From Candidatus Bathyarchaeia archaeon (GTDB lineage: Archaea; Thermoproteota; Bathyarchaeia; Bathyarchaeales; Bathycorpusculaceae): a DNA stretch of 29,000 nucleotides. The notes beneath the pieces were generated by a model that worked only from the letters and a program-made list of their open reading frames with translations, did no database searches and was not told the origin of the DNA. Positions 9,729 through 16,485 of the stretch are shown in pieces (the first letter of the stretch is position 1; every line of letters starts with the position of its first letter). The stretch spans positions 1 to 29,000 of the forward strand of contig DATEAU010000193.1 of NCBI GenBank assembly GCA_035288165.1, written 5' to 3'. Position numbers and translations under genes: made by a program.

Positions 9729-10787
9729 ATGAAAGCTCTTGTACTTAGCGGTGGCAAAGGCACTAGATTGCGACCTTTAACAGTTACCTGCGCTAAACAG
9801 CTTATTCCAGTAGCGAACAAGCCAATCCTGGGTTATGTTCTCGACCAAGTGGCTGAGACACCAATAAAAGAAGTGGGCATCATCATCGCACCCGAAACGG
9901 GCACCTACGTCAAAGAATACGTGGAAGACGGCGCAAAATGGAAATTCAAGGTTACTTACATTCCTCAGGAGCCTCTTGGCTTAGCGCACGCGGTTAAAAC
10001 CGCCAAGAGTTTTCTCGGCAACGACTCTTTCATAATGTGCCTCGGCGACAACGTGACGGGCCAAGGCGTAAAAAAGCTGGTGCAAAAGTTTGAGGAAGAA
10101 AAACTTGATGGCTTAATCGTGCTTAAAGAAGTTGAGGATCCCTCTCGGTTCGGCATTGCCCAACTGGACAAGAAGGGAAACATTGTCAAGCTGGTTGAAA
10201 AACCGAAAACCCCGATGGGAAACCTCGCCATAATTGGCACATACCTATTTTCAAATAGGGTCCACAAAGCCGTTGAGCGGATAAAACCTTCGTGGCGGGA
10301 AGAACTTGAAATTACCGATGCTATTCAAGAAATGGTGAACATGGGCTTCAAAGTTAAGGCGGAAATCCTTGATTCATGGTGGCTGGACACGGGGAAAAAG
10401 GACGACATTCTCTCAGCTAACGCCAAGATTCTGGACGAGTATGTTAAGAGAGACATCAAGGGAACCGCCACCAACAGCACAATAGAGGGAAGAGTCAAGG
10501 TGGAGGCTGAAGCGAGAATAATCAACAGCACAGTCAGGGGACCGTGCATAATAGGGAAAAACGCAACCGTGGAAAACTCGTTTGTGGGACCTTACACAAG
10601 CATAGGAGACAACTCGCAGGTAACAAACAGTCATCTCGAGTATTGCGTCCTGCTGGAAAACGTAGTGGTCACGGATGTTGAACGCATCGAAGAAAGCCTC
10701 ATCGGCAAAAACGCGAGAGTGACGAAAAACACCAAGCGCAGCATCATCAGGCTTCACATAGGAGACTTCTCGGAAGTAGAAGTTTAA
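9729..10787 (+). CDS. rmlA: Glucose-1-phosphate thymidylyltransferase, long form
   Basis: GGKGTRLRPLT…KQLIPVANKP, QEPLGLAHAV, LGDN, LVEKP, WLDTG and a C-terminal left-handed beta-helix-like region. First gene of the rml set. Confidence 0.93.
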   Translation: MKALVLSGGKGTRLRPLTVTCAKQLIPVANKPILGYVLDQVAETPIKEVGIIIAPETGTYVKEYVEDGAKWKFKVTYIPQEPLGLAHAVKTAKSFLGNDSFIMCLGDNVTGQGVKKLVQKFEEEKLDGLIVLKEVEDPSRFGIAQLDKKGNIVKLVEKPKTPMGNLAIIGTYLFSNRVHKAVERIKPSWREELEITDAIQEMVNMGFKVKAEILDSWWLDTGKKDDILSANAKILDEYVKRDIKGTATNSTIEGRVKVEAEARIINSTVRGPCIIGKNATVENSFVGPYTSIGDNSQVTNSHLEYCVLLENVVVTDVERIEESLIGKNARVTKNTKRSIIRLHIGDFSEVEV

Positions 10788-10856
10788 ATACTAACAACTT
10801 TAAAAGTGAACACGAACTAACGAAACAGGTTGAAACGCTTGAAGGGCTGAATCGAT

Positions 10857-11363
10857 ATGTTGACAGGAATAGTAATTAAGCCGTTGAAACGTTTACCCGA
10901 TGAGCGAGGCTTCTTCACAGAAATATTTAGGAAAGACTGGACTGACCTTTTTGCGGAAAAAGACGAGATTGTCCAATCTAACCTTTCAATAACTTATCCA
11001 AGCATTATCCGAGCTTGGCACAAACATGAAAGAGGACAGACCGACTACTTTGTGGCAGTAAAAGGTGCCTTGAAAATATGCGCCTACGATGAAGCAACTA
11101 GAGAGCTTGATGAAATTGTATCTTCAGGCGAAAACCTGCAAGTCGTCAGGGTCCCCGGGCATTACTGGCACGGATTTAAAGCCTTAGGAAACAAACCAGC
11201 AATGCTGGTCTACTTCACAACGCGGCTGTACAACCCAACACACCCTGACGAAATACGGAGATCATGGGATGACAAAACGCTGATCCCAGCAATAATAAAC
11301 GGCAAGAAAGACGACCCGCGAGTTGGCAAAACTTGGAACTGGGATTATCCACCACACAAGTGA
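10857..11363 (+). CDS. rmlC: dTDP-4-dehydrorhamnose 3,5-epimerase (cupin)
   Basis: DERGFFTE, IIRAWHKH and VRVPGHYWHGF. Located between rmlA and rmlB. Confidence 0.88.
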   Translation: MLTGIVIKPLKRLPDERGFFTEIFRKDWTDLFAEKDEIVQSNLSITYPSIIRAWHKHERGQTDYFVAVKGALKICAYDEATRELDEIVSSGENLQVVRVPGHYWHGFKALGNKPAMLVYFTTRLYNPTHPDEIRRSWDDKTLIPAIINGKKDDPRVGKTWNWDYPPHK

Positions 11364-11370
11364 GGTCACC

Positions 11371-12378
11371 ATGAAACTTCTCGTAACAGGCGGACTCGGC
11401 TTCATCGGAAGCAACTTCTGCAGACTAATCCTAACAGACCACCAAGATTATGAATTGGTAAACATCGACAAAGTCGGAGTGGGCGCTAACCCGGCAAACC
11501 TCCGCGACCTAGAAAACGAGAAAAGATACACTTTCATAAAAGGCGACATCGGCAACACACAAATCTTGAACAAAGCAATCAAACACGCGGATGCCGTGGT
11601 CAACATAGCCGCGGAAACCCACGTGGACAGGAGCATATCCGACCCTTTTTCTTTCCTTCAAAACAACACGCTTGGAACATACACAATTCTGGAGGCACTA
11701 AGGAAACATAATGACCAAGCCAAGCTTGTTCAAGTATCCACTGACGAAGTCTACGGCGAAATCCCTGAAGGCTCATTCACAGAAAATGATGCAGTTAAAC
11801 CATCCAACCCGTATTCGGCTTCCAAAGCCTCGGCAGACATGTTTGTTCAAGCTTACCACAAAACATACGGCTTAAATGCAGTTATTACCCGATGTACAAA
11901 CAATTTCGGACCATACCAATTCCCAGAAAAACTGATACCAAAAACAATTATACGTGCCCTAAAAGACTTACCCATCCCAATCTATGGCTCAGGGAAAAAT
12001 GTTCGCGAGTGGATTCATGCAATAGACCATTGTGAAGCTATAATCGCAGTTCTGAAGAAGGGAAAGCCTGGTGAAGTGTACAATGTTTCTTCAGGGAGCG
12101 AACTCTCGAACCTTGAATTAGTCAAGAAAATCCTCGCTCTTCTCCATAAACCCGAGAATCTAATAACATTTGTCGAAGACCGCCCAGGCCACGACTTAAG
12201 ATACTGCCTTGATTCGTCAAAAATCCAAACTGAACTAGGGTGGAAACCAAAGTTCTCTTTCAACCAAGCTTTAGAATCCACAGTCAAATGGTATGTTGAC
12301 AATGAGCAATGGTGGCGACTATTGGCAACTGAAAGTGTTCTCAGCCCTACGCCATGGAAGACAAGTGGTCACGGTTGA
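11371..12378 (+). CDS. rmlB: dTDP-glucose 4,6-dehydratase
   Basis: TGGLGFIGSNF, AAETHVDRSI, VSTDEVYG, YSASK, RCTNNFGPYQFPEKLIP and DRPGHDLRY. ATG 11371 follows a GAGGT RBS. Confidence 0.95.
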   Translation: MKLLVTGGLGFIGSNFCRLILTDHQDYELVNIDKVGVGANPANLRDLENEKRYTFIKGDIGNTQILNKAIKHADAVVNIAAETHVDRSISDPFSFLQNNTLGTYTILEALRKHNDQAKLVQVSTDEVYGEIPEGSFTENDAVKPSNPYSASKASADMFVQAYHKTYGLNAVITRCTNNFGPYQFPEKLIPKTIIRALKDLPIPIYGSGKNVREWIHAIDHCEAIIAVLKKGKPGEVYNVSSGSELSNLELVKKILALLHKPENLITFVEDRPGHDLRYCLDSSKIQTELGWKPKFSFNQALESTVKWYVDNEQWWRLLATESVLSPTPWKTSGHG

Positions 12379-13262
12379 GAATCCTCATTACAGGAGCCAG
12401 CGGATTATACGGCTCAAAACTGGCTAATTTAGCCGAAAAAAAGGGGCATCAAGTCTTTTCCGCATACAACCAGCATCAGGCAGCTTTTGGAAAACCTGTT
12501 CGAATTGAAATTTCAGACAAAGATCGGGTTGAAAAAATTTTCAGAGAATTGGCACCCGAAATCGTGGTACACGCAGCGACTTTGACTGATGTGGACAAAT
12601 GTGAGCTGAACAAAGAGTTGGCTTGGAAAATAAACGTGGAAGGAACCGAAAACATAACGCGGGCAGCGAAAACAAGCAATACTTTCCTTTTGTACATTTC
12701 AACTGACTATGTTTTCAACGGCGAAACAGGGCAATATGAGGAGACGGATTTGCCTGACCCCATAAACTATTATGGATTAACTAAATTGAAGGCTGAGGAG
12801 CAAGTGAAAACCATCACAAACGATTACTGCATTGCCCGCGCAAGCGTAATTTACGGGGCCACGCCTGCGGCTGGAAAAGTTAACTTCGCCCTTTGGATAC
12901 ACAATACTCTCAAGAAAGGCGAAAAAGCAAAAGCCCTCGTTGACCAGTGGAACTCGCCAACGTTGAACACTAACTTAGCCAGAATGTCTATTGAAATAAT
13001 AGAAAAAAGGCTAAGAGGAACTTTCCATCTTTCGGGAGCCACACGTATAAGCCGCTACGATTTTGCTCAGATGGTAGCGCAAACCTTCAACTTAGACGCG
13101 AGTTTGATAGTTCCGACTTTGACGAGGGATTTTTCATGGACCGCAAAGCGGCCTCGAGACTCGTCGCTTAATTCTGCGAAGGCTCAACAAATATTAGAAA
13201 ACAAGCCACTTACGATTGAACATGCGCTGCAAGAAATGAAACAAGAGCTGACCATACTGTAA
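12375..13262 (+). CDS. rmlD: dTDP-4-dehydrorhamnose reductase
   Basis: ILITGASGLYG, HAATLTDVDKCE, ISTDYVF, YGLTK, DQWNSPT and KRPRDSSL. The TTG start overlaps the rmlB stop (TTGA). Confidence 0.93.
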   Translation: MRILITGASGLYGSKLANLAEKKGHQVFSAYNQHQAAFGKPVRIEISDKDRVEKIFRELAPEIVVHAATLTDVDKCELNKELAWKINVEGTENITRAAKTSNTFLLYISTDYVFNGETGQYEETDLPDPINYYGLTKLKAEEQVKTITNDYCIARASVIYGATPAAGKVNFALWIHNTLKKGEKAKALVDQWNSPTLNTNLARMSIEIIEKRLRGTFHLSGATRISRYDFAQMVAQTFNLDASLIVPTLTRDFSWTAKRPRDSSLNSAKAQQILENKPLTIEHALQEMKQELTIL

Positions 13263-13335
13263 AACAACAGTAATTGCAGGGTCAAATGTTATTTACGTCA
13301 AGAAAACTCAGTTTCTATGCAAACTTAGCAGAGGA

Positions 13336-13342
13336 TTTATAA
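13336..13342 (+). promoter_or_regulatory. Candidate TATA box upstream of the deacetylase/GNAT fusion and flippase genes
   Basis: TTTATAA 45 nt upstream of the ATG at 13387, preceded by a purine-rich segment. Confidence 0.4.
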
Positions 13343-13386
13343 TTCATAACAGAACCTTCTCTATGTAAAGAGCAAGCAGAGAAACA

Positions 13387-14862
13387 ATGATAAAACTCAG
13401 ATTAGACGTTGACTACGCATATCCTTCGAGAATTAAAAGCTTCCTCTATACAGCTCTGAACAGAAAAACAGACAAGAACTACCTGAAAAATTCAAAAATA
13501 ATCGCCAAAATGATTAATGAGTCGCCACGGGAAGTCAAAGCCTTCTGGTTCTTCACCCCGTATACGACGCCGGACAAGGAATTGCTTGAATTGCTAACTT
13601 CCGATAAACACGAAGTTGCCCTTCACGTAGCAAATGACCCTTATGGGGAACTCGAAAAACTGGAGCAGGCGACAAACCGGAAAGTCGAGTTTTACACTGT
13701 TCATGGAACTGCCCGTTTGCTTGCTCGGTTAATGTGGAGACGAAAACTTTGGGAAGCCAGAGCGTCAATTCCCGACGGTTTCCCGCTGCAGTCATTCTAC
13801 GAGTTTCCCACGTTGGGCTTCGATTTAGCTTGCCACAATAACCCACCAGCGCAAGCCGTCGAAATCGCTGAGGCAAGCATAGCTAAAGGAGAAGTATTGC
13901 ATATTCATCCTGAATGGCTTTTCCAGCGAGGGACATACAACCATAGAGGACCATTCTACGAGCCGCTGAAAAAGATACTTCAAGTAGACACGGAGCTCGC
14001 AACCCTGGTTGTCCAAAAAAGAGGGTTTGCCAAGTTAGCCCGGTATGTTGAAACCAAAGAGTACGAACGAGACTTCATTCCAACCGCGAGGCTCCTCGAA
14101 AAACTCTCGGAGAGGGGACTAGATATCTTTACTTTCTTGGAAAGGAAGTGGTGTTGCCCAATCGCCAACCCGTCAGAGACATGGCGCAGGACGGAAGACA
14201 ACATTGCACTTCTCAACGTGGCAACTTATAGCGATTGGCTGGAGCGGGTTGGCAAGAAAACGCGGAACATGGTTCGCAAAGCTGAAAAAAGCGGCGTGAA
14301 AACCGAGGTTGTTGAGAACAATGATAGGTTTGCTGGAGGCGTCTGGAAAGTCTATAATGAGACGCCTATACGGCAAGGGAGAGCGTTCCCCCATTATGGC
14401 AAATCACTGCAAACCGTGAAGGCGATAGTCAATTTAGGTACAAATTTCACGTACATCGGGGCGTTCTTCCAAGATGAGATGGTTGGGTTTTTGCAGCTTG
14501 TCATTGGCGACAAAATTGCTATAATCTCTCAGATTCTTTCTCTACAGAAGCATTCTGACAAAGCGGTGAACAACGCGCTTGTAGCAAAGGCAGTGGAAGT
14601 ATGTGCGGAGAAACAGTGCAGGTGGATTATGTACGGAAGAATGGGAAATCACCCTTCCCTTGACAACTTCAAGCAGAACAACGCCTTCACCAAGTTCTCC
14701 CTCACGCGATATTATGTTCCAACCACTGGGAAAGGGCGAATCGCCATGCGATTAGGATTGCACAAACAAGTAAAAGATGTCGTTCCCCAGCCAATAAAAG
14801 GCTCTCTGATTCCGGTTTACAATTGGGTTAGCCGAAACAAAACGCGAATGAGATTCCATTAA
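13387..14862 (+). CDS. Two-domain protein: N-terminal polysaccharide deacetylase-like (NodB/WbmS-like) domain fused to a C-terminal FemAB/GNAT-like acyltransferase domain
   Basis: N-terminal LRLDVD, EVALH, TVHG and LHIHP resemble CE4-like metal motifs. C-terminal KKTRNMVRKAEKSGV, YIGAFFQDEMVG, NNALVAKAVE and SLDNFKQNNAF resemble Fem/GNAT folds. Confidence 0.65.
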   Translation: MIKLRLDVDYAYPSRIKSFLYTALNRKTDKNYLKNSKIIAKMINESPREVKAFWFFTPYTTPDKELLELLTSDKHEVALHVANDPYGELEKLEQATNRKVEFYTVHGTARLLARLMWRRKLWEARASIPDGFPLQSFYEFPTLGFDLACHNNPPAQAVEIAEASIAKGEVLHIHPEWLFQRGTYNHRGPFYEPLKKILQVDTELATLVVQKRGFAKLARYVETKEYERDFIPTARLLEKLSERGLDIFTFLERKWCCPIANPSETWRRTEDNIALLNVATYSDWLERVGKKTRNMVRKAEKSGVKTEVVENNDRFAGGVWKVYNETPIRQGRAFPHYGKSLQTVKAIVNLGTNFTYIGAFFQDEMVGFLQLVIGDKIAIISQILSLQKHSDKAVNNALVAKAVEVCAEKQCRWIMYGRMGNHPSLDNFKQNNAFTKFSLTRYYVPTTGKGRIAMRLGLHKQVKDVVPQPIKGSLIPVYNWVSRNKTRMRFH

Positions 14863-14967
14863 TTTTCAGGCCGAGCCACTGCCGTCAGGCAAAATGAATA
14901 GCAGTTGTCCAAACAAGATTTAATACGGACATGGACACTATGCAATGAAAACATCCAAGGTGTCACA

Positions 14968-16485
14968 GTGGCAGGAAAGGAGATTCGCCTCCAGTACACA
15001 GGCTACGTCTTATTCGCAGCAAAAATAATCGGCGTAGCGACTGGCCTGATTTTTCAGTTCATGCTGGCGCGTTCAATTCCAAACGACAGCCCAGAATACG
15101 GGATATGGGGCAACATCAATTACGTTCTCCCGTACTTCACATTGCTGGCCGGAGTCGTACCATTCTGGGTTATGCGATGCGTCGCAAGAGGGCAAAAAGG
15201 AGCAACCAAAACAGGACTTGGAATAAACCTGCTCTTTTCATTAATAAGCACAGCCGCTTACCTCATCATTATTCCAATTATCCTGCCGTCACTTCTTTCT
15301 GAAGCAGGAATCGCTAATCCCATAGCCTATCTGCCCTTCTACCTAATTGTTTCAATTCAGATAATCGAAACGTACCTGATCGGACTTTTTGAACCATGCC
15401 TTCAAGCTTCCACGCCACAATCGGTAGGCTACGGATTGATATTGCAACAAGTGTCCAGAGTCATACTGGGCTACGTAATTATCATCCAGCTGGGTCAGCC
15501 ACTACTGGGAGCAATTGTAAGCGGTATCATCGCATTCGCCGTACAAACGGTCTATTATTTAAAACTCGCGAGGAATGAATTGAAAGAACATGTGCAATGG
15601 GGATACGTGAAAGAGTGGCTCAAAGGCTCTGCTCTAAACGTATATTTGGTTGTGGGAGGCCAGATTGCGGCGTTTATTTTCATTATGCTCTTCTATTACG
15701 GTGGAGCGATAAGCATGGAACTATATTATGTAGCCCTTCAGATGGCGAATGTCATCACATATGCTAGCTTCTTATCGTTCGCACTTTATCCGAAACTCTT
15801 GGCAGAAAGACGCGAGGAGGACGTAACGGCTTCGATGAAAACTGTTTTGATGTTCGCCCTTCCCATGACAGTTGGAGCGATAGCATTATCCAGTTCTTAC
15901 ATGGTGCTTCTGAGAGTTAAAACGCTGGAAAATTACCCAGGAGCAGAATGGATCCTCGTAGTGTTAGCTTTGGACGCTTTCGTAACTGTGGTTTCGAGTA
16001 TTTACGCCTCCGTTCTGACAGGGGTTGAAACGGTCGATCAGGAACGAATGTCGTTCAAATCGTTGATTAAAAGCAAACTATTCAGGTACTTCACTTTGTC
16101 CTATTTGCATTCTGCCATAACTATCCCAATTGCGTTTTACGTTTTAACAACTTTCGCTTTCCAACAGCCATTGCTGGCAGCGATTTCCGTGGTTGCCATT
16201 AACTCCGTTGTGCGCTTTGCCATGTTCATAGTCCTGATCGTGATGGTTCGCAAAATATTCAAGGTTGTTGTCCCGTGGAGGAGCATAGGGAAGTATCTTT
16301 TGGCTTCCGCCGCAATGGGTATAGTGCTTGTTCTCTTACCTTACTCAGCTGATATATTCCTAATTTTAGTGTGGACCGCTATTGGCGGCGCAGTCTATTT
16401 GGCACTGTTAATGCTAATTGACAAAGAGGCGCGGGCTCTTCCCATGAATATCCTGCATGAGTTGAGGCGCAAGAAAAAAGATTGA
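14968..16485 (+). CDS. Polysaccharide/oligosaccharide flippase (MOP/Wzx-like membrane transporter)
   Basis: About 505 aa with roughly 12-14 hydrophobic segments. It is the last gene of the glycan locus. GTG 14968 follows AGGTG; an alternative TTG lies at 14905. Confidence 0.8.
   Translation: MAGKEIRLQYTGYVLFAAKIIGVATGLIFQFMLARSIPNDSPEYGIWGNINYVLPYFTLLAGVVPFWVMRCVARGQKGATKTGLGINLLFSLISTAAYLIIIPIILPSLLSEAGIANPIAYLPFYLIVSIQIIETYLIGLFEPCLQASTPQSVGYGLILQQVSRVILGYVIIIQLGQPLLGAIVSGIIAFAVQTVYYLKLARNELKEHVQWGYVKEWLKGSALNVYLVVGGQIAAFIFIMLFYYGGAISMELYYVALQMANVITYASFLSFALYPKLLAERREEDVTASMKTVLMFALPMTVGAIALSSSYMVLLRVKTLENYPGAEWILVVLALDAFVTVVSSIYASVLTGVETVDQERMSFKSLIKSKLFRYFTLSYLHSAITIPIAFYVLTTFAFQQPLLAAISVVAINSVVRFAMFIVLIVMVRKIFKVVVPWRSIGKYLLASAAMGIVLVLLPYSADIFLILVWTAIGGAVYLALLMLIDKEARALPMNILHELRRKKKD

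Follow-up and report, generated by a model that had tools for sequence, protein, structure and literature searches.

A NodB-fold barrel joined to a Fem-type transferase at the end of a bathyarchaeial glycan gene island, and its possible role in tRNA-dependent glycan modification

Introduction

Enzymes of the Fem type divert aminoacyl-tRNA from translation to the chemistry of the cell envelope, and to our knowledge this diversion has so far been shown for bacterial peptidoglycan, for membrane lipids and for a few antibiotics. Polysaccharide loci frequently carry Fem-like genes as well (HfsK of the holdfast, the PEP-CTERM loci and the Wzy-type loci described below), and we know of none among these genes with an assigned reaction. 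A gene at the edge of the sugar-coat gene cluster of a soil archaeon raises the question as to whether chemistry of this kind is also applied to archaeal glycans. The archaeon belongs to the Bathyarchaeia, a very abundant lineage of sediment and soil on whose envelope chemistry we found nothing in the literature searched, and the gene lies in a window of 29,000 nucleotides, which is the whole stretch of DNA that was analysed. The original prediction, made from this sequence, was that a single polypeptide combines a deacetylase-like domain with a FemAB/GNAT domain and may strip the acyl group from an amino sugar and re-acylate it, possibly with an amino acid from tRNA, before export of the glycan.

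Results

The fusion gene and its neighbors

The gene occupies positions 13387 to 14862 on the forward strand and is, as predicted, a single ORF, with an ATG start and a 491-residue product (P0001 in our protein set). The motifs on which the prediction drew are all present (DVD at residues 7-9, H75, H80, HG at 106-107, HIHP at 172-175 and KKTRNMVRKAEKSGV at 290-304), and they are not chance features, since residues within them fall in columns of the homologue alignments that are invariant or nearly so. No transmembrane segment or signal peptide is predicted, and the fusion protein is therefore expected to be soluble; its peak 19-residue Kyte-Doolittle hydropathy mean is 1.63 and is located in the GNAT core. 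The AF2 model of the full-length protein has a pLDDT of 79.3 and a pTM of 0.72.

Upstream lie rmlA, rmlC, rmlB and rmlD (9729 to 13262, forward strand), assigned to the dTDP-rhamnose pathway by Pfam matches and synteny, which form the last block of a variable glycan island, with the fusion gene as its closing member. The immediate upstream neighbor is RmlD (Pfam RmlD_sub_bind, E 1.7e-71), from which the fusion gene is separated by a spacer of 124 nt (13263 to 13386, forward strand). Some 45 nt ahead of the start codon, at about 13336-13343, the spacer contains TTTATAAT, which may be an archaeal TATA-type promoter belonging to the fusion gene itself. The downstream ORF (14905 to 16485, forward strand) encodes a 526-residue membrane protein with 12 hydrophobic segments. 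We find no sequence match for it in Pfam, NCBIfam or PDB, and its nearest ESM-Atlas clusters (scores 0.98-0.99, with an Atlas record that begins at residue 22) carry Polysacc_synt, Polysacc_synt_3 or MurJ, so that it is probably a Wzx/MurJ-like flippase of the MOP superfamily. The proposed placement between rmlD and a flippase is thus secure on the upstream side, whereas the identity of the flippase is best treated as a well-founded lead. A conserved Fe-S operon (IscS/IscU/SufS) also adjoins the fusion gene, on the opposite strand.

Linkage of the two modules

More than 3000 homologues were found, of which the 120 best are 60-87% identical over their full length and mostly bathyarchaeial; about 180 species genomes contain a relative, and almost all of these are Bathyarchaeia. 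In a comparison of 41 relatives the gene is present in 17. Among the best 80 loci the two parts are fused in frame in 72, split in five and represented by the N-terminal part alone in three. The split loci (L066, L076, L084, L097 and L101) have the two parts in different frames, and in three of them (L066, L084 and L097) both genes are whole and the stop codon of the first overlaps the start codon of the second; the N-terminal part of L101 contains an interruption of its own, and the contig of L076 stops ahead of the C-terminal part. The linkage of N-terminal to C-terminal module, in that order, is obligate, be it within one fusion or across split genes that overlap. Three observations confirm a boundary near residue 200: the split genes, stand-alone N-terminal proteins of about 200 residues and stand-alone C-terminal proteins of about 300 residues. 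Other architectures also occur: P0222 combines the C-terminal module with a GT4 glycosyltransferase, and P0138 combines the N-terminal module with a methyltransferase.

More distant relatives of the C-terminal module were sought in metagenomes with a 10-sequence alignment. None of 80 such loci has an N-type barrel beside the stand-alone C-module homologue, and a canonical CE4 gene lies within 6 kb in only eight, never adjacent. Because the barrel is absent from all 80, its pairing with the C-terminal module is specific to the Bathyarchaeia and not a property of the wider family. In two annotated loci (L188 and L222) distant stand-alone homologues are situated among GT2 and Wzy-like genes, accompanied by a GT4 gene and an AsnB-like gene in L188 and by a methyltransferase gene in L222. 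A tblastn search of PLSDB plasmids with the C-terminal module gave no match.

A Fem-type module with a shortened first lobe

The C-terminal part of the protein, all encoded on the forward strand, comprises a shortened first GNAT-like lobe (residues 201-277, positions 13987 to 14217) with four strands and two helices in the model, a complete second lobe (residues 278-460, 14218 to 14766) and a conserved, basic tail (residues 461-491, 14767 to 14862) in which P467, P476 and W480 are invariant and which is modelled as a low-confidence helix (pLDDT 37-57). Structure comparison of residues 201-460 yields FemX_Sa (Z 18.7), Sba18/Sbb17 (18.1), FemX_Wv (17.2), FemA (16.6) and MprF (15.5), and these alignments cover both lobes (222-250 residues, rmsd 3.3-4.5); the acetyl-CoA tandem GNATs VipF, MshD and 3tt2 reach Z 13.9-15.4, but with an rmsd of 5.6-7.2. 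Alignment of the C-domain family (62 sequences) with five canonical FemAB proteins by hhalign gives a probability of 96.9% (E 1.4e-10, 194 columns). These canonical proteins are the Thermoproteota proteins above the PF02388 cut-off, which occur in 5 of 201 Thermoproteota genomes, and the Fem link is reached through them as intermediates, not by direct search of PDB sequences.

Three Fem signatures are conserved: the KKTRNxVRKAEKxGV helix, a (R/S)DKxxNN loop and the pair F428-K429. The helix (residues 290-304, KKTRNMVRKAEKSGV; 14254 to 14298, forward strand) is basic, stands at the start of the second lobe and provides the most amphipathic 18-residue window of the protein. Its aligned counterparts are GKTRNMVRKAMKKGV in one of the canonical archaeal FemAB proteins and the corresponding helices of FemX_Wv and Sbb17. 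In 31 full-length homologues K290, K291, T292, R293, N294, R297 and K298 are invariant, as are F428 and K429. The basic helix on lobe 2 of Fem-family enzymes has been proposed to bind the tRNA acceptor stem (PMC12945691), and judging from the alignments KKTRNMVRKAEKSGV is the counterpart of this putative acceptor-stem helix. The loop reads H389-S-D-K-A-V-N-N396 and, like F428-K429, belongs to the second lobe. The pair is nearly invariant in the wider 62-sequence family and aligns with F-K of the canonical FemAB proteins and, through L135, with F304-K305 of FemX_Wv, the conserved Fem-type Phe-Lys pair, which in DhpH-C is F328-K329. Two lobes, a positively charged helix on lobe 2 and a Phe-Lys pair place the module in the Fem group in the superfamily sense, that of FemX, MurM, VlmA, PacB, DhpH and Orf11.

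The likeness to the FemABX proteins proper (FemX_Wv, 1NE9/4II9; S. aureus FemX, 6SNR; FemA, 1LRZ; PF02388) extends to the two-lobe GNAT fold (Z 16.6-18.7), the basic helix opening lobe 2, the RD-x-x-P-N-type loop and the F-K pair (K429 corresponding to K305), but the archaeal protein has no coiled-coil insertion, is joined to a NodB-fold barrel, falls below the PF02388 threshold and has a first lobe without roughly half of its elements. That lobe is only about 75 residues long and aligns to FemX and Sbb17 from residue about 37-44 onward, leaving the first ∼40 residues of a Fem lobe with no counterpart, and the hhalign match to FemAB begins only at about residue 242. PF02388 does not match the fusion protein, nor any protein of the genome at E<=0.01, and in the homologue P0134 it reaches just E 0.0019, over the helix region. 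The protein is likewise below threshold for PF13480, the LPG_synthase_C signal in homologues is faint (E 0.03), and among NCBIfam models TIGR03019 alone gives a match, at 26.1 bits (E 3.9e-6, residues 281-443), far below its 260-bit equivalog cut-off. The truncated first lobe and these sub-threshold scores count against a Fem assignment. The module that had been described as Fem-like therefore stands as such in the alignment of both lobes, in its FemAB profile match and in having the catalytic Lys of Fem enzymes in place of the GNAT Tyr, and is not a plain single acetyl-CoA GNAT, but the Fem duplication is incomplete.

An alternative explanation is that the architecture and the glycan role are as proposed and that the donor is an acyl-CoA rather than an aminoacyl-tRNA, such that N-acetyl is exchanged for another acyl group, after the logic of NodB/NodA or LpxC/LpxD, or the amine is re-acetylated. 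The C-family profile does find classical GNATs among PDB sequences (PaiA 5.4e-6, 3d8p 2.6e-5, VipF 1.4e-4), with no Fem chain appearing at E<=10; Acetyltransf_1 (PF00583) matches weakly, at 16.9-18.4 bits against a cut-off of 20.7; some homologues bear the name 'GNAT family N-acetyltransferase'; and for HfsK, the Fem-like enzyme of the holdfast, a donor is likewise not established (PMC5362036). The same profile alignments, however, depart from classical GNATs at both diagnostic positions. F428-K429 falls on the motif-B 'FY', so that the general-acid Tyr (also in the alignment to PaiA) is opposite an invariant Lys, as in Fem enzymes, and the pyrophosphate loop of PaiA, Q-K-H-G-L-G, is opposite S-D-K-A-V-N, which fits the Fem RD-x-x-P-N and not Q/R-x-x-G-x-G/A. 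The arrangement of the lobes, moreover, fits Fem and MprF at rmsd 3.3-3.8, as compared with 5.6-7.2 for the CoA-using tandem GNATs, and CoA binding offers no role for the invariant basic helix. We consider an acyl-CoA donor unlikely, and prefer an aminoacyl-tRNA donor. The window contains neither a tRNA gene nor an aminoacyl-tRNA synthetase paralogue, an absence that stands on the other side from this preference and that says little either way about the donor.

A divergent NodB-fold barrel

The N-terminal domain (residues 1-200, positions 13387 to 13986, forward strand) is a very divergent beta/alpha barrel of the NodB/CE4 fold. Modelled alone it has a pLDDT of 91.5, and in a search of 48,161 representative chains its top 25 structural matches are CE4 proteins without exception (Z 9-10.8; rmsd 2.9-5.2 over 139-177 of 204 residues), as the postulated NodB-like fold requires; a Foldseek search is in weak agreement, with E about 1e-3 to CE4, ArnD, WbmS and PuuE. 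Sequence searches give noise only: there is no Pfam match above threshold for the single protein or for any of 39 family members (the best PF01522 score, in one member, is E 0.12), the domain profile finds nothing better than PARP15 (E 0.33) among PDB sequences, and NCBIfam gives no more. The sole PF01522 match of the genome is elsewhere, on contig C73, the fusion protein itself being below threshold. Alignment of the domain family with 20 canonical CE4 domains of related genomes by hhalign has a probability of 33%, a similarity confined to motif 2 that is suggestive and no proof of homology.

The canonical CE4 enzymes carry an Asp-His-His metal triad and an Asp/His catalytic pair in the motifs TFDD, H(S/T)xxH, RxPY, DxxD(W/Y) and LxH. 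In this low-confidence alignment, H80 falls opposite the leading His of HxxxH in CE4, DVD takes the place of DD, and H174 suits the LxH position. The second His of HxxxH is missing, position 84 being variable, which bears out the earlier observation that the motif is incomplete, and 'YTVHG' occupies the place of RPPYG, such that the Arg of RPPY (MT3) is absent. Across 39 sequences, down to 42% identity, D9, H80, H106-G107 and H174-P175 are invariant and D7 nearly so. The conserved polar residues are D7, D9, R15, H80, E88, H106, D146, H174 and R187, of which D7, D9, H80, H106, D146 and H174 are located in the model at the C-terminal ends of the barrel strands, all invariant or nearly so in the alignment.

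Comparison with CE4/NodB polysaccharide deacetylases (PF01522; SpPgdA, 2C1I; acetylxylan esterase, 7FBW) shows the same distorted beta/alpha barrel (Z 9.4-10.8) and suggests two further parallels, an Asp ending strand 1 and, in H174, a probable L-x-H-type His of the last conserved strand. The N-terminal module differs from them in having no significant sequence match, DVD for DD, no second metal His or motif-3 Arg, new invariant residues (R15, E88, H106, D146 and R187) and a length of only about 200 residues. Nearest by identity (20%) is WbmS (3HFT, PF22537), a protein of O-antigen loci, and ArnD (8T0J) is another divergent relative. These data define the module as a NodB-fold family without a Pfam model and with an altered set of catalytic motifs.

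The altered motifs raise the question as to whether the barrel is an enzyme at all. If it is catalytically dead, it could be an acceptor-binding module that stands in for what the first Fem lobe has lost, and the acceptor amine would already be free, for example as the aminotransferase product of a 4-keto-6-deoxy intermediate of the rml pathway. The missing second His and MT3 Arg point in this direction, together with the presence among the best structural matches of BA3943, a CE4-fold pseudoenzyme; the weak similarity to CE4 profiles counts against the deacetylase reading. The first Fem lobe, which in FemX helps to bind the acceptor, is truncated exactly where the barrel attaches, and the rml genes yield dTDP-4-keto-6-deoxyglucose, a common precursor of amino-deoxy sugars. 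Set against this, near-invariance of the D7/H174 pair and of the possible ligands D9, H80 and H106 to 42% identity would be unusual for a binding module, no sugar aminotransferase of the DegT family is found among the genes of the window, and in many species the rml genes are absent upstream. We hold a dead barrel to be improbable; the conserved residues weaken the suggestion of a possibly inactive first domain, although they do not disprove it.

Invariable location at glycan-island ends

In all of the 80 best loci a variable glycan island ends with the gene. The variable block upstream consists of rmlABCD or of UGDH/DUF354/GT2/GT4 genes, and in many species the fusion gene follows UGDH/DUF354/GT2 blocks in which rml genes are lacking. 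A MOP-like relative comes after it in eight of ten relatives' loci; for the 80 species loci the figure is about 30, counted only where more than half of the query aligned at E<1e-8.

It could nonetheless be argued that the glycan genes are incidental and that the product is a small aminoacyl-aminosugar metabolite, made in the manner of mycothiol or bacillithiol (deacetylation of GlcNAc-X and addition of an amino acid) or by a streptothricin-type pathway. The closest characterized chemistry is indeed that of a natural-product enzyme: Orf11 of the BD-12 pathway is Fem-like and transfers Gly from Gly-tRNA(Gly) to the amino sugar of streptothrisamine (PMC12945691), the same combination of amino-sugar acceptor and aminoacyl-tRNA donor that we propose here. 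The Sba18/Sbb17 structures (9WQW, 9WQX and 9WQY), which are streptothrisamine-bound deposits of aminoacyl-tRNA-dependent enzymes, are among the top structural matches and the best Foldseek matches (E 4e-11, TM 0.57-0.59 by target length) and are compact, at ∼290 residues, like the C-terminal module. Orf11, Sba18 and Sbb17 differ from it in being actinobacterial enzymes with a small-molecule acceptor, no fused deacetylase-like domain and 12-14% identity in the structural alignments. MshD, a tandem GNAT of mycothiol synthesis, is a further structural match (Z 13.9), and 60-87% identity next to glycan genes that vary is typical of a housekeeping function, as the adjoining Fe-S operon might also suggest. 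That operon, however, is on the opposite strand, whereas the fusion gene is always on the glycan-island side in 80 species, with a MOP-like transporter frequently following, and GT4 fusions as well as homologues in Wzy/GT loci exist. We regard a small-metabolite product as very unlikely, and a glycan or lipid-linked sugar as the better candidate for the acceptor.

Discussion

The concept of stripping and re-acylating a glycan is less new than was originally implied, because bacteria provide precedents in the form of separate genes. In the Caulobacter holdfast a CE4 deacetylase, HfsH, and a Fem-like GNAT, HfsK, act on one polysaccharide, and in PEP-CTERM/exosortase loci a TIGR03006 deacetylase and a TIGR03019 FemAB-like protein presumably occur together, as we understand the TIGRFAM descriptions. 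In both cases the two are separate proteins with a canonical CE4 partner, whereas the archaeal modules share one chain or are coupled in translation, and the family of the deacetylase-like part is an undescribed one. The C-terminal domain of MprF (DUF2156; 4V34-36, 7DUW) is a further relative, with a tandem GNAT fold (Z 13.7-15.5) and tRNA-dependent aminoacyl transfer to a membrane-lipid-linked acceptor that is coupled to a flippase; it differs in that the acceptor is a lipid hydroxyl, giving an ester, and in that the flippase is within the same polypeptide. Since the host has no peptidoglycan, the acceptor of the fusion protein must differ from that of the FemABX proteins.

The reading that we favor, and to which we give slightly less than an even chance, is that of a cytoplasmic enzyme which takes off an N-acetyl group before attaching an amino acid drawn from aminoacyl-tRNA. 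The gene product would be a soluble, two-module glycan-tailoring enzyme whose first module (residues 1-200) would bind an N-acetylated amino sugar on a nucleotide or lipid carrier and probably strip the N-acetyl group by metal-assisted hydrolysis, with D7 as candidate base, H174 as candidate acid and D9, H80 and H106 as possible metal ligands. The second module (residues 201-460) would act as a double-GNAT transferase of the Fem type, its first lobe shortened: an aminoacyl-tRNA would dock by its acceptor stem on the basic helix 290-304, and with K429 as the likely equivalent of FemX Lys305 the amino acid would pass to the unmasked amine of the sugar and yield an N-aminoacyl amino sugar. Once complete, the lipid-linked unit may cross the membrane by way of the MOP-like protein encoded next door, in which case both steps would precede flipping; which amino acid and which sugar take part is left general in this proposal. 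The fuller claim, that Bathyarchaeia place a tRNA-derived amino acid on a surface-glycan or lipid-linked sugar by means of one enzyme made up of a new NodB-fold deacetylase family and a Fem-type transferase, is tentative, and we offer it as a possibility on the doubtful side.

The archaeal fusion physically ties a Fem-like module to a deacetylase-like barrel, which suggests that an amino sugar is first N-deacetylated and then N-aminoacylated. The natural split versions are ready-made single-domain proteins for assays of the two activities. If the proposal is true, the Archaea would have their first demonstrated tRNA-dependent modification of a glycan, and the widespread uncharacterized Fem-like genes of polysaccharide loci would gain a biochemical assignment.

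The gene and its surroundings

The gene at window:13387-14862 (+) is a single open reading frame of 491 codons with an ATG start, and its translation contains every motif listed in the original prediction: DVD at residues 7-9, the histidines H75 and H80, H106-G107, H172-I-H174-P175, and KKTRNMVRKAEKSGV at residues 290-304. No segment of the protein reaches transmembrane hydrophobicity (Kyte-Doolittle, 19-residue window; the maximum average, 1.63, falls within the GNAT core), and its N-terminus does not resemble a signal; a cytoplasmic location is therefore expected. Database names for its homologues are 'hypothetical protein' or 'GNAT family N-acetyltransferase', a literature search found no paper on it, and what we say of its function is inferred from its sequence, its predicted structure and the genes around it.

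Pfam annotation places the gene in a glycan island on the + strand, comprising in order a short UDP-sugar dehydrogenase-like gene, DUF354, a WsaF-like GT4, a SAM methyltransferase, a B12-radical-SAM enzyme, rmlA, rmlC, rmlB, rmlD, the gene itself and a 526-aa membrane protein, with a GT2 gene inside the island on the - strand. A conserved housekeeping block follows: an Fe-S operon (- strand), Hel308, adenylosuccinate lyase and an AsnB-like gene. The 124 nt spacer behind rmlD contains TTTATAAT about 45 nt upstream of the ATG, a possible sign that the gene has a promoter of its own.

Several island members have features of their own. The dehydrogenase-like ORF (window:1956-2780, +) is only 274 aa: it has N-terminal and central domains, but the C-terminal UDP-binding domain is missing from the stretch up to the next gene, which begins at 2971; because short dehydrogenase-like matches recur beside DUF354 in many other Bathyarchaeia loci, it may be a conserved short form rather than a broken gene. 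The WsaF-like rhamnosyltransferase, SAM methyltransferase and B12-binding radical SAM enzyme lie consecutively upstream of the rml genes (window:5518-9435, +), and this trio, whole or partial, is seen again in a few related loci (L031, L068). The 168-aa RmlC (window:10857-11363, +), a cupin matching dTDP_sugar_isom at E 9.5e-14, also matches Polysacc_synt_C, a membrane-domain family, above cut-off (E 7.8e-12, 45.7 bits), which looks like an oddity of the Pfam model and no real domain.

The 526-aa protein (window:14905-16485, +) had been called a flippase. It has 12 hydrophobic segments, and its closest Atlas clusters (0.98-0.99) bear Polysacc_synt, Polysacc_synt_3 or MurJ; it has no Pfam, NCBIfam or PDB sequence match, and a MOP-type flippase is thus a good lead rather than an assignment. 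Its listed TTG start (window:14905-14967, +) is probably too far upstream, because the Atlas record starts at residue 22, and a later start would widen the gap behind the preceding gene from 42 to about 105 nt.

The C-terminal module

In a Foldseek search with the C-terminal module, Sbb17 and Sba18, both aminoacyl-tRNA-dependent synthases, rank highest (E 4e-11), ahead of VipF, MprF, FemX and further tandem GNATs. Re-alignment gives Z scores of 18.7 for FemX of S. aureus, 18.1 for Sba18/Sbb17, 17.2 for FemX of Weissella viridescens, 16.6 for FemA and 15.5 for MprF; all of these alignments cover 222-250 residues across model residues 201-460 at rmsd 3.3-4.5. Acetyl-CoA tandem GNATs reach Z 13.9-15.4, but at rmsd 5.6-7.2, and single GNATs align only to residues 271/300-440. 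A second lobe in a Fem-like arrangement is therefore present, and the original proposal of a Fem-like module rather than a plain single GNAT is supported. This additional lobe comprises only residues 201-277, with four strands and two helices, and nothing in it corresponds to the first ∼40 residues of the Fem lobe.

At the sequence level the whole protein is below the thresholds of PF02388, PF13480, TIGR03019 and PF01522; on the C module Acetyltransf_1 and Acetyltransf_6 are both sub-threshold, and TIGR03019 (PEP-CTERM FemAB) scores E 3.9e-6, far under its cut-off. As a bridge we used canonical FemAB proteins scoring above the PF02388 cut-off, found in 5 of 201 Thermoproteota genomes (L135:805-1869, L136:77-1102, L137:820-1836, L138:1375-2403 on the - strand, and L139:820-1848; 339-355 aa). 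Haloferax volcanii and Methanosarcina acetivorans, used as control genomes, also give FemAB-family matches at a looser threshold. The archaea with these FemAB proteins have no peptidoglycan.

Profile-profile alignment (hhalign) joins the C family to canonical FemAB with 96.9% probability (E 1.4e-10, 194 columns), and three motifs align: the basic helix (GKKTRNMVRKAEKSGV in the target, GKTRNMVRKAMKKGV in L135, SKTKSKIKRPFRDGV in W. viridescens FemX), the beta4-alpha3 loop (H-S-D-K-A-V-N-N, family consensus HRDKxPNN; YRDVAPND in L135, FRDFLPN in S. aureus FemX), and the catalytic pair (LDNFKQNNAF; IAVFKMGF in L135, LYVFKHV in W. viridescens FemX). The L135 protein itself matches Sbb17 (7e-14) and W. 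viridescens FemX (1e-5), and its F309-K310 aligns with F304-K305 of the latter, from which K429 of the target is the predicted counterpart of Lys305. The basic helix, on lobe 2 of Fem enzymes, has been proposed as the place where the tRNA acceptor stem docks (PMC12945691). By fold, profile-profile homology and catalytic motifs the protein belongs to the Fem-type superfamily.

The donor could instead be an acyl-CoA, as might be expected from the 62-member C-family profile, which in the PDB finds ordinary GNATs (PaiA, 5.4e-6) and no Fem chain. In the PaiA alignment, however, K429 stands in place of the GNAT motif-B Tyr and S-D-K-A-V-N in place of the CoA pyrophosphate loop Q-x-x-G-x-G, and we consider this alternative rather unlikely; the features of the modelled module favour an aminoacyl-tRNA donor.

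The N-terminal barrel

The N-terminal domain is patchy in the full-length model, but folded alone with an alignment of 38 stand-alone homologues it gives an alternating strand-helix barrel (pLDDT 91.5, pTM 0.89). Foldseek returns weak, one-sided matches (E ∼1e-3) to a CE4 pseudoenzyme, acetylxylan esterase, HP0310, ArnD, WbmS, PuuE and GH57. An independent structure search over 48,161 representative chains places CE4/NodB-fold proteins at ranks 1-25 (Z 8.9-10.8, rmsd 2.9-5.2, 139-177 of 204 residues aligned), with the single exception of rank 21, and GH57, LamB/YcsF and other members of the same superfold next (Z ∼8), in agreement with the NodB-like domain originally suggested. An Atlas feature search gives leads in the same direction (NodB, WbmS-like, DUF2334). 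The exception (8qpg_TC, Z 9.3) is the turret protein of Haloferax tailed virus 1, which may contain a virion-borne deacetylase-like domain.

None of the 39 N-family members has a Pfam family, a PDB sequence search with the domain gave no match, and hhalign with 20 canonical CE4 domains of related genomes as targets reaches only 33% probability; the modelled domain is a member of the NodB superfold by structure only. In that low-confidence alignment E76 and H80 fall on an 'E-I-x-x-H' leading into the CE4 HxxxH motif, 'YTVHG' on 'RPPYG', and the second HxxxH histidine on the variable position 84. This last point, together with the CE4 pseudoenzyme among the Foldseek matches, would fit a dead barrel that serves as a non-catalytic sugar-binding module. 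Yet D7, D9, Y10, R15, W54, H80, E88, H106-G107, W117, D146, H174-P175, W177 and R187 are invariant or nearly so throughout the N family, and the conserved acidic residues and histidines lie at the C-terminal ends of the modelled strands, where beta/alpha barrels have their active sites. A binding-only barrel thus seems improbable, and the domain is probably an active, strongly remodelled NodB-type hydrolase.

Distribution and gene order

A word-index search finds more than 3000 homologues, the best 120 of which are all full length (∼490-510 aa, about 60-87% identity), mostly from Bathyarchaeia MAGs. In an exhaustive profile search over 50%-identity representatives full-length clusters are very few, stand-alone C proteins are numerous (∼290-330 aa, with starts at about profile position 200-245), and there is a set of stand-alone N proteins of ∼200-220 aa, which a region search confirmed. 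N-domain relatives are encoded on 180 stretches of GTDB species genomes, nearly all of which carry a Bathyarchaeia or Bathyarchaeota label; in the few exceptions noticed (L030, L095) the contig is no longer than 15 kb. Among relatives of the window's genome a match is present in 17 of 41, and in 14 of 24 of its own family.

In 72 of the 80 best loci both parts share one frame without a stop. They are in different frames in five: L066, L084 and L097 have two intact genes (203-247 and 296-297 codons) with an 8-20 nt overlap between the end of one and the beginning of the next, the N part of L101 is itself interrupted, and the L076 contig stops before the C part is complete. Only the N part is found in three, with the sequence of L074 and L095 ending shortly past the match. 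The third, L027:6968-7621 (Bathyarchaeota MAG SKW112, 248-kb contig), has the barrel gene alone (217 codons), the C module absent and ∼400 nt without a long ORF before the Fe-S operon, and could serve as a naturally occurring control with module 1 only. The N-then-C order is never broken in the loci surveyed, the classical signature of two cooperating activities.

Wherever the sequence extends far enough, the gene stands at the end of a variable glycan block, containing rmlABCD (in either gene order), UGDH/DUF354/GT2/GT4, or both, and is followed by the Fe-S operon directly or by the MOP-like protein first (8 of 10 relatives' loci; ∼30 of 80 species loci when coverage is filtered strictly). 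The gene (N domain 55-76% identical) is far better conserved than the preceding glycan genes, which suggests that its target is a shared part of the glycan or its carrier and not the variable sugars.

A proposed two-step glycan modification

We propose that the barrel would bind an N-acetylated amino sugar on a nucleotide or lipid carrier and probably remove its acetyl group; the Fem-type module would then dock an aminoacyl-tRNA on its basic helix and transfer the amino acid, assisted by K429, to the freed amine, and the neighbouring MOP-like protein would export the lipid-linked unit. A precedent for the aminoacyl-tRNA-dependent acylation of an amino sugar is Orf11, which transfers glycine from Gly-tRNA onto the amino sugar of streptothrisamine (PMC12945691). 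That the product is a small molecule appears very unlikely; this and the other likelihoods are rough, and the alternatives partly overlap with the reading proposed here. Pairing a deacetylase with a Fem-like enzyme to make a polysaccharide is an older idea: Caulobacter HfsH (a CE4 deacetylase) and HfsK (Fem-like) have similar mutant phenotypes, and one pathway has been proposed for them (PMC5362036). The novelty lies in the union of both modules in a single polypeptide, in the shortening of the first Fem lobe and in a barrel family not described before.

The modules also occur in other combinations. Two metagenome proteins join a GT4 glycosyltransferase to the Fem-like C module (P0222, 513 aa) and a NodB-like N module to a SAM methyltransferase (P0138, 345 aa). 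Stand-alone C-module homologues, ∼30-35% identical to the target, are found in soil and peat metagenomes, and in the two annotated loci they lie amid GT2, Wzy-like, GT4 and AsnB-like genes (L188) or GT2, Wzy-like and methyltransferase genes (L222). Among 80 metagenome loci none has an N-type barrel adjoining the C-module gene, and only eight have a canonical CE4 within 6 kb. From these neighbours we infer that the glycan role is a trait of the C-module family, and that its coupling to the N-type barrel is a Bathyarchaeia-specific innovation.
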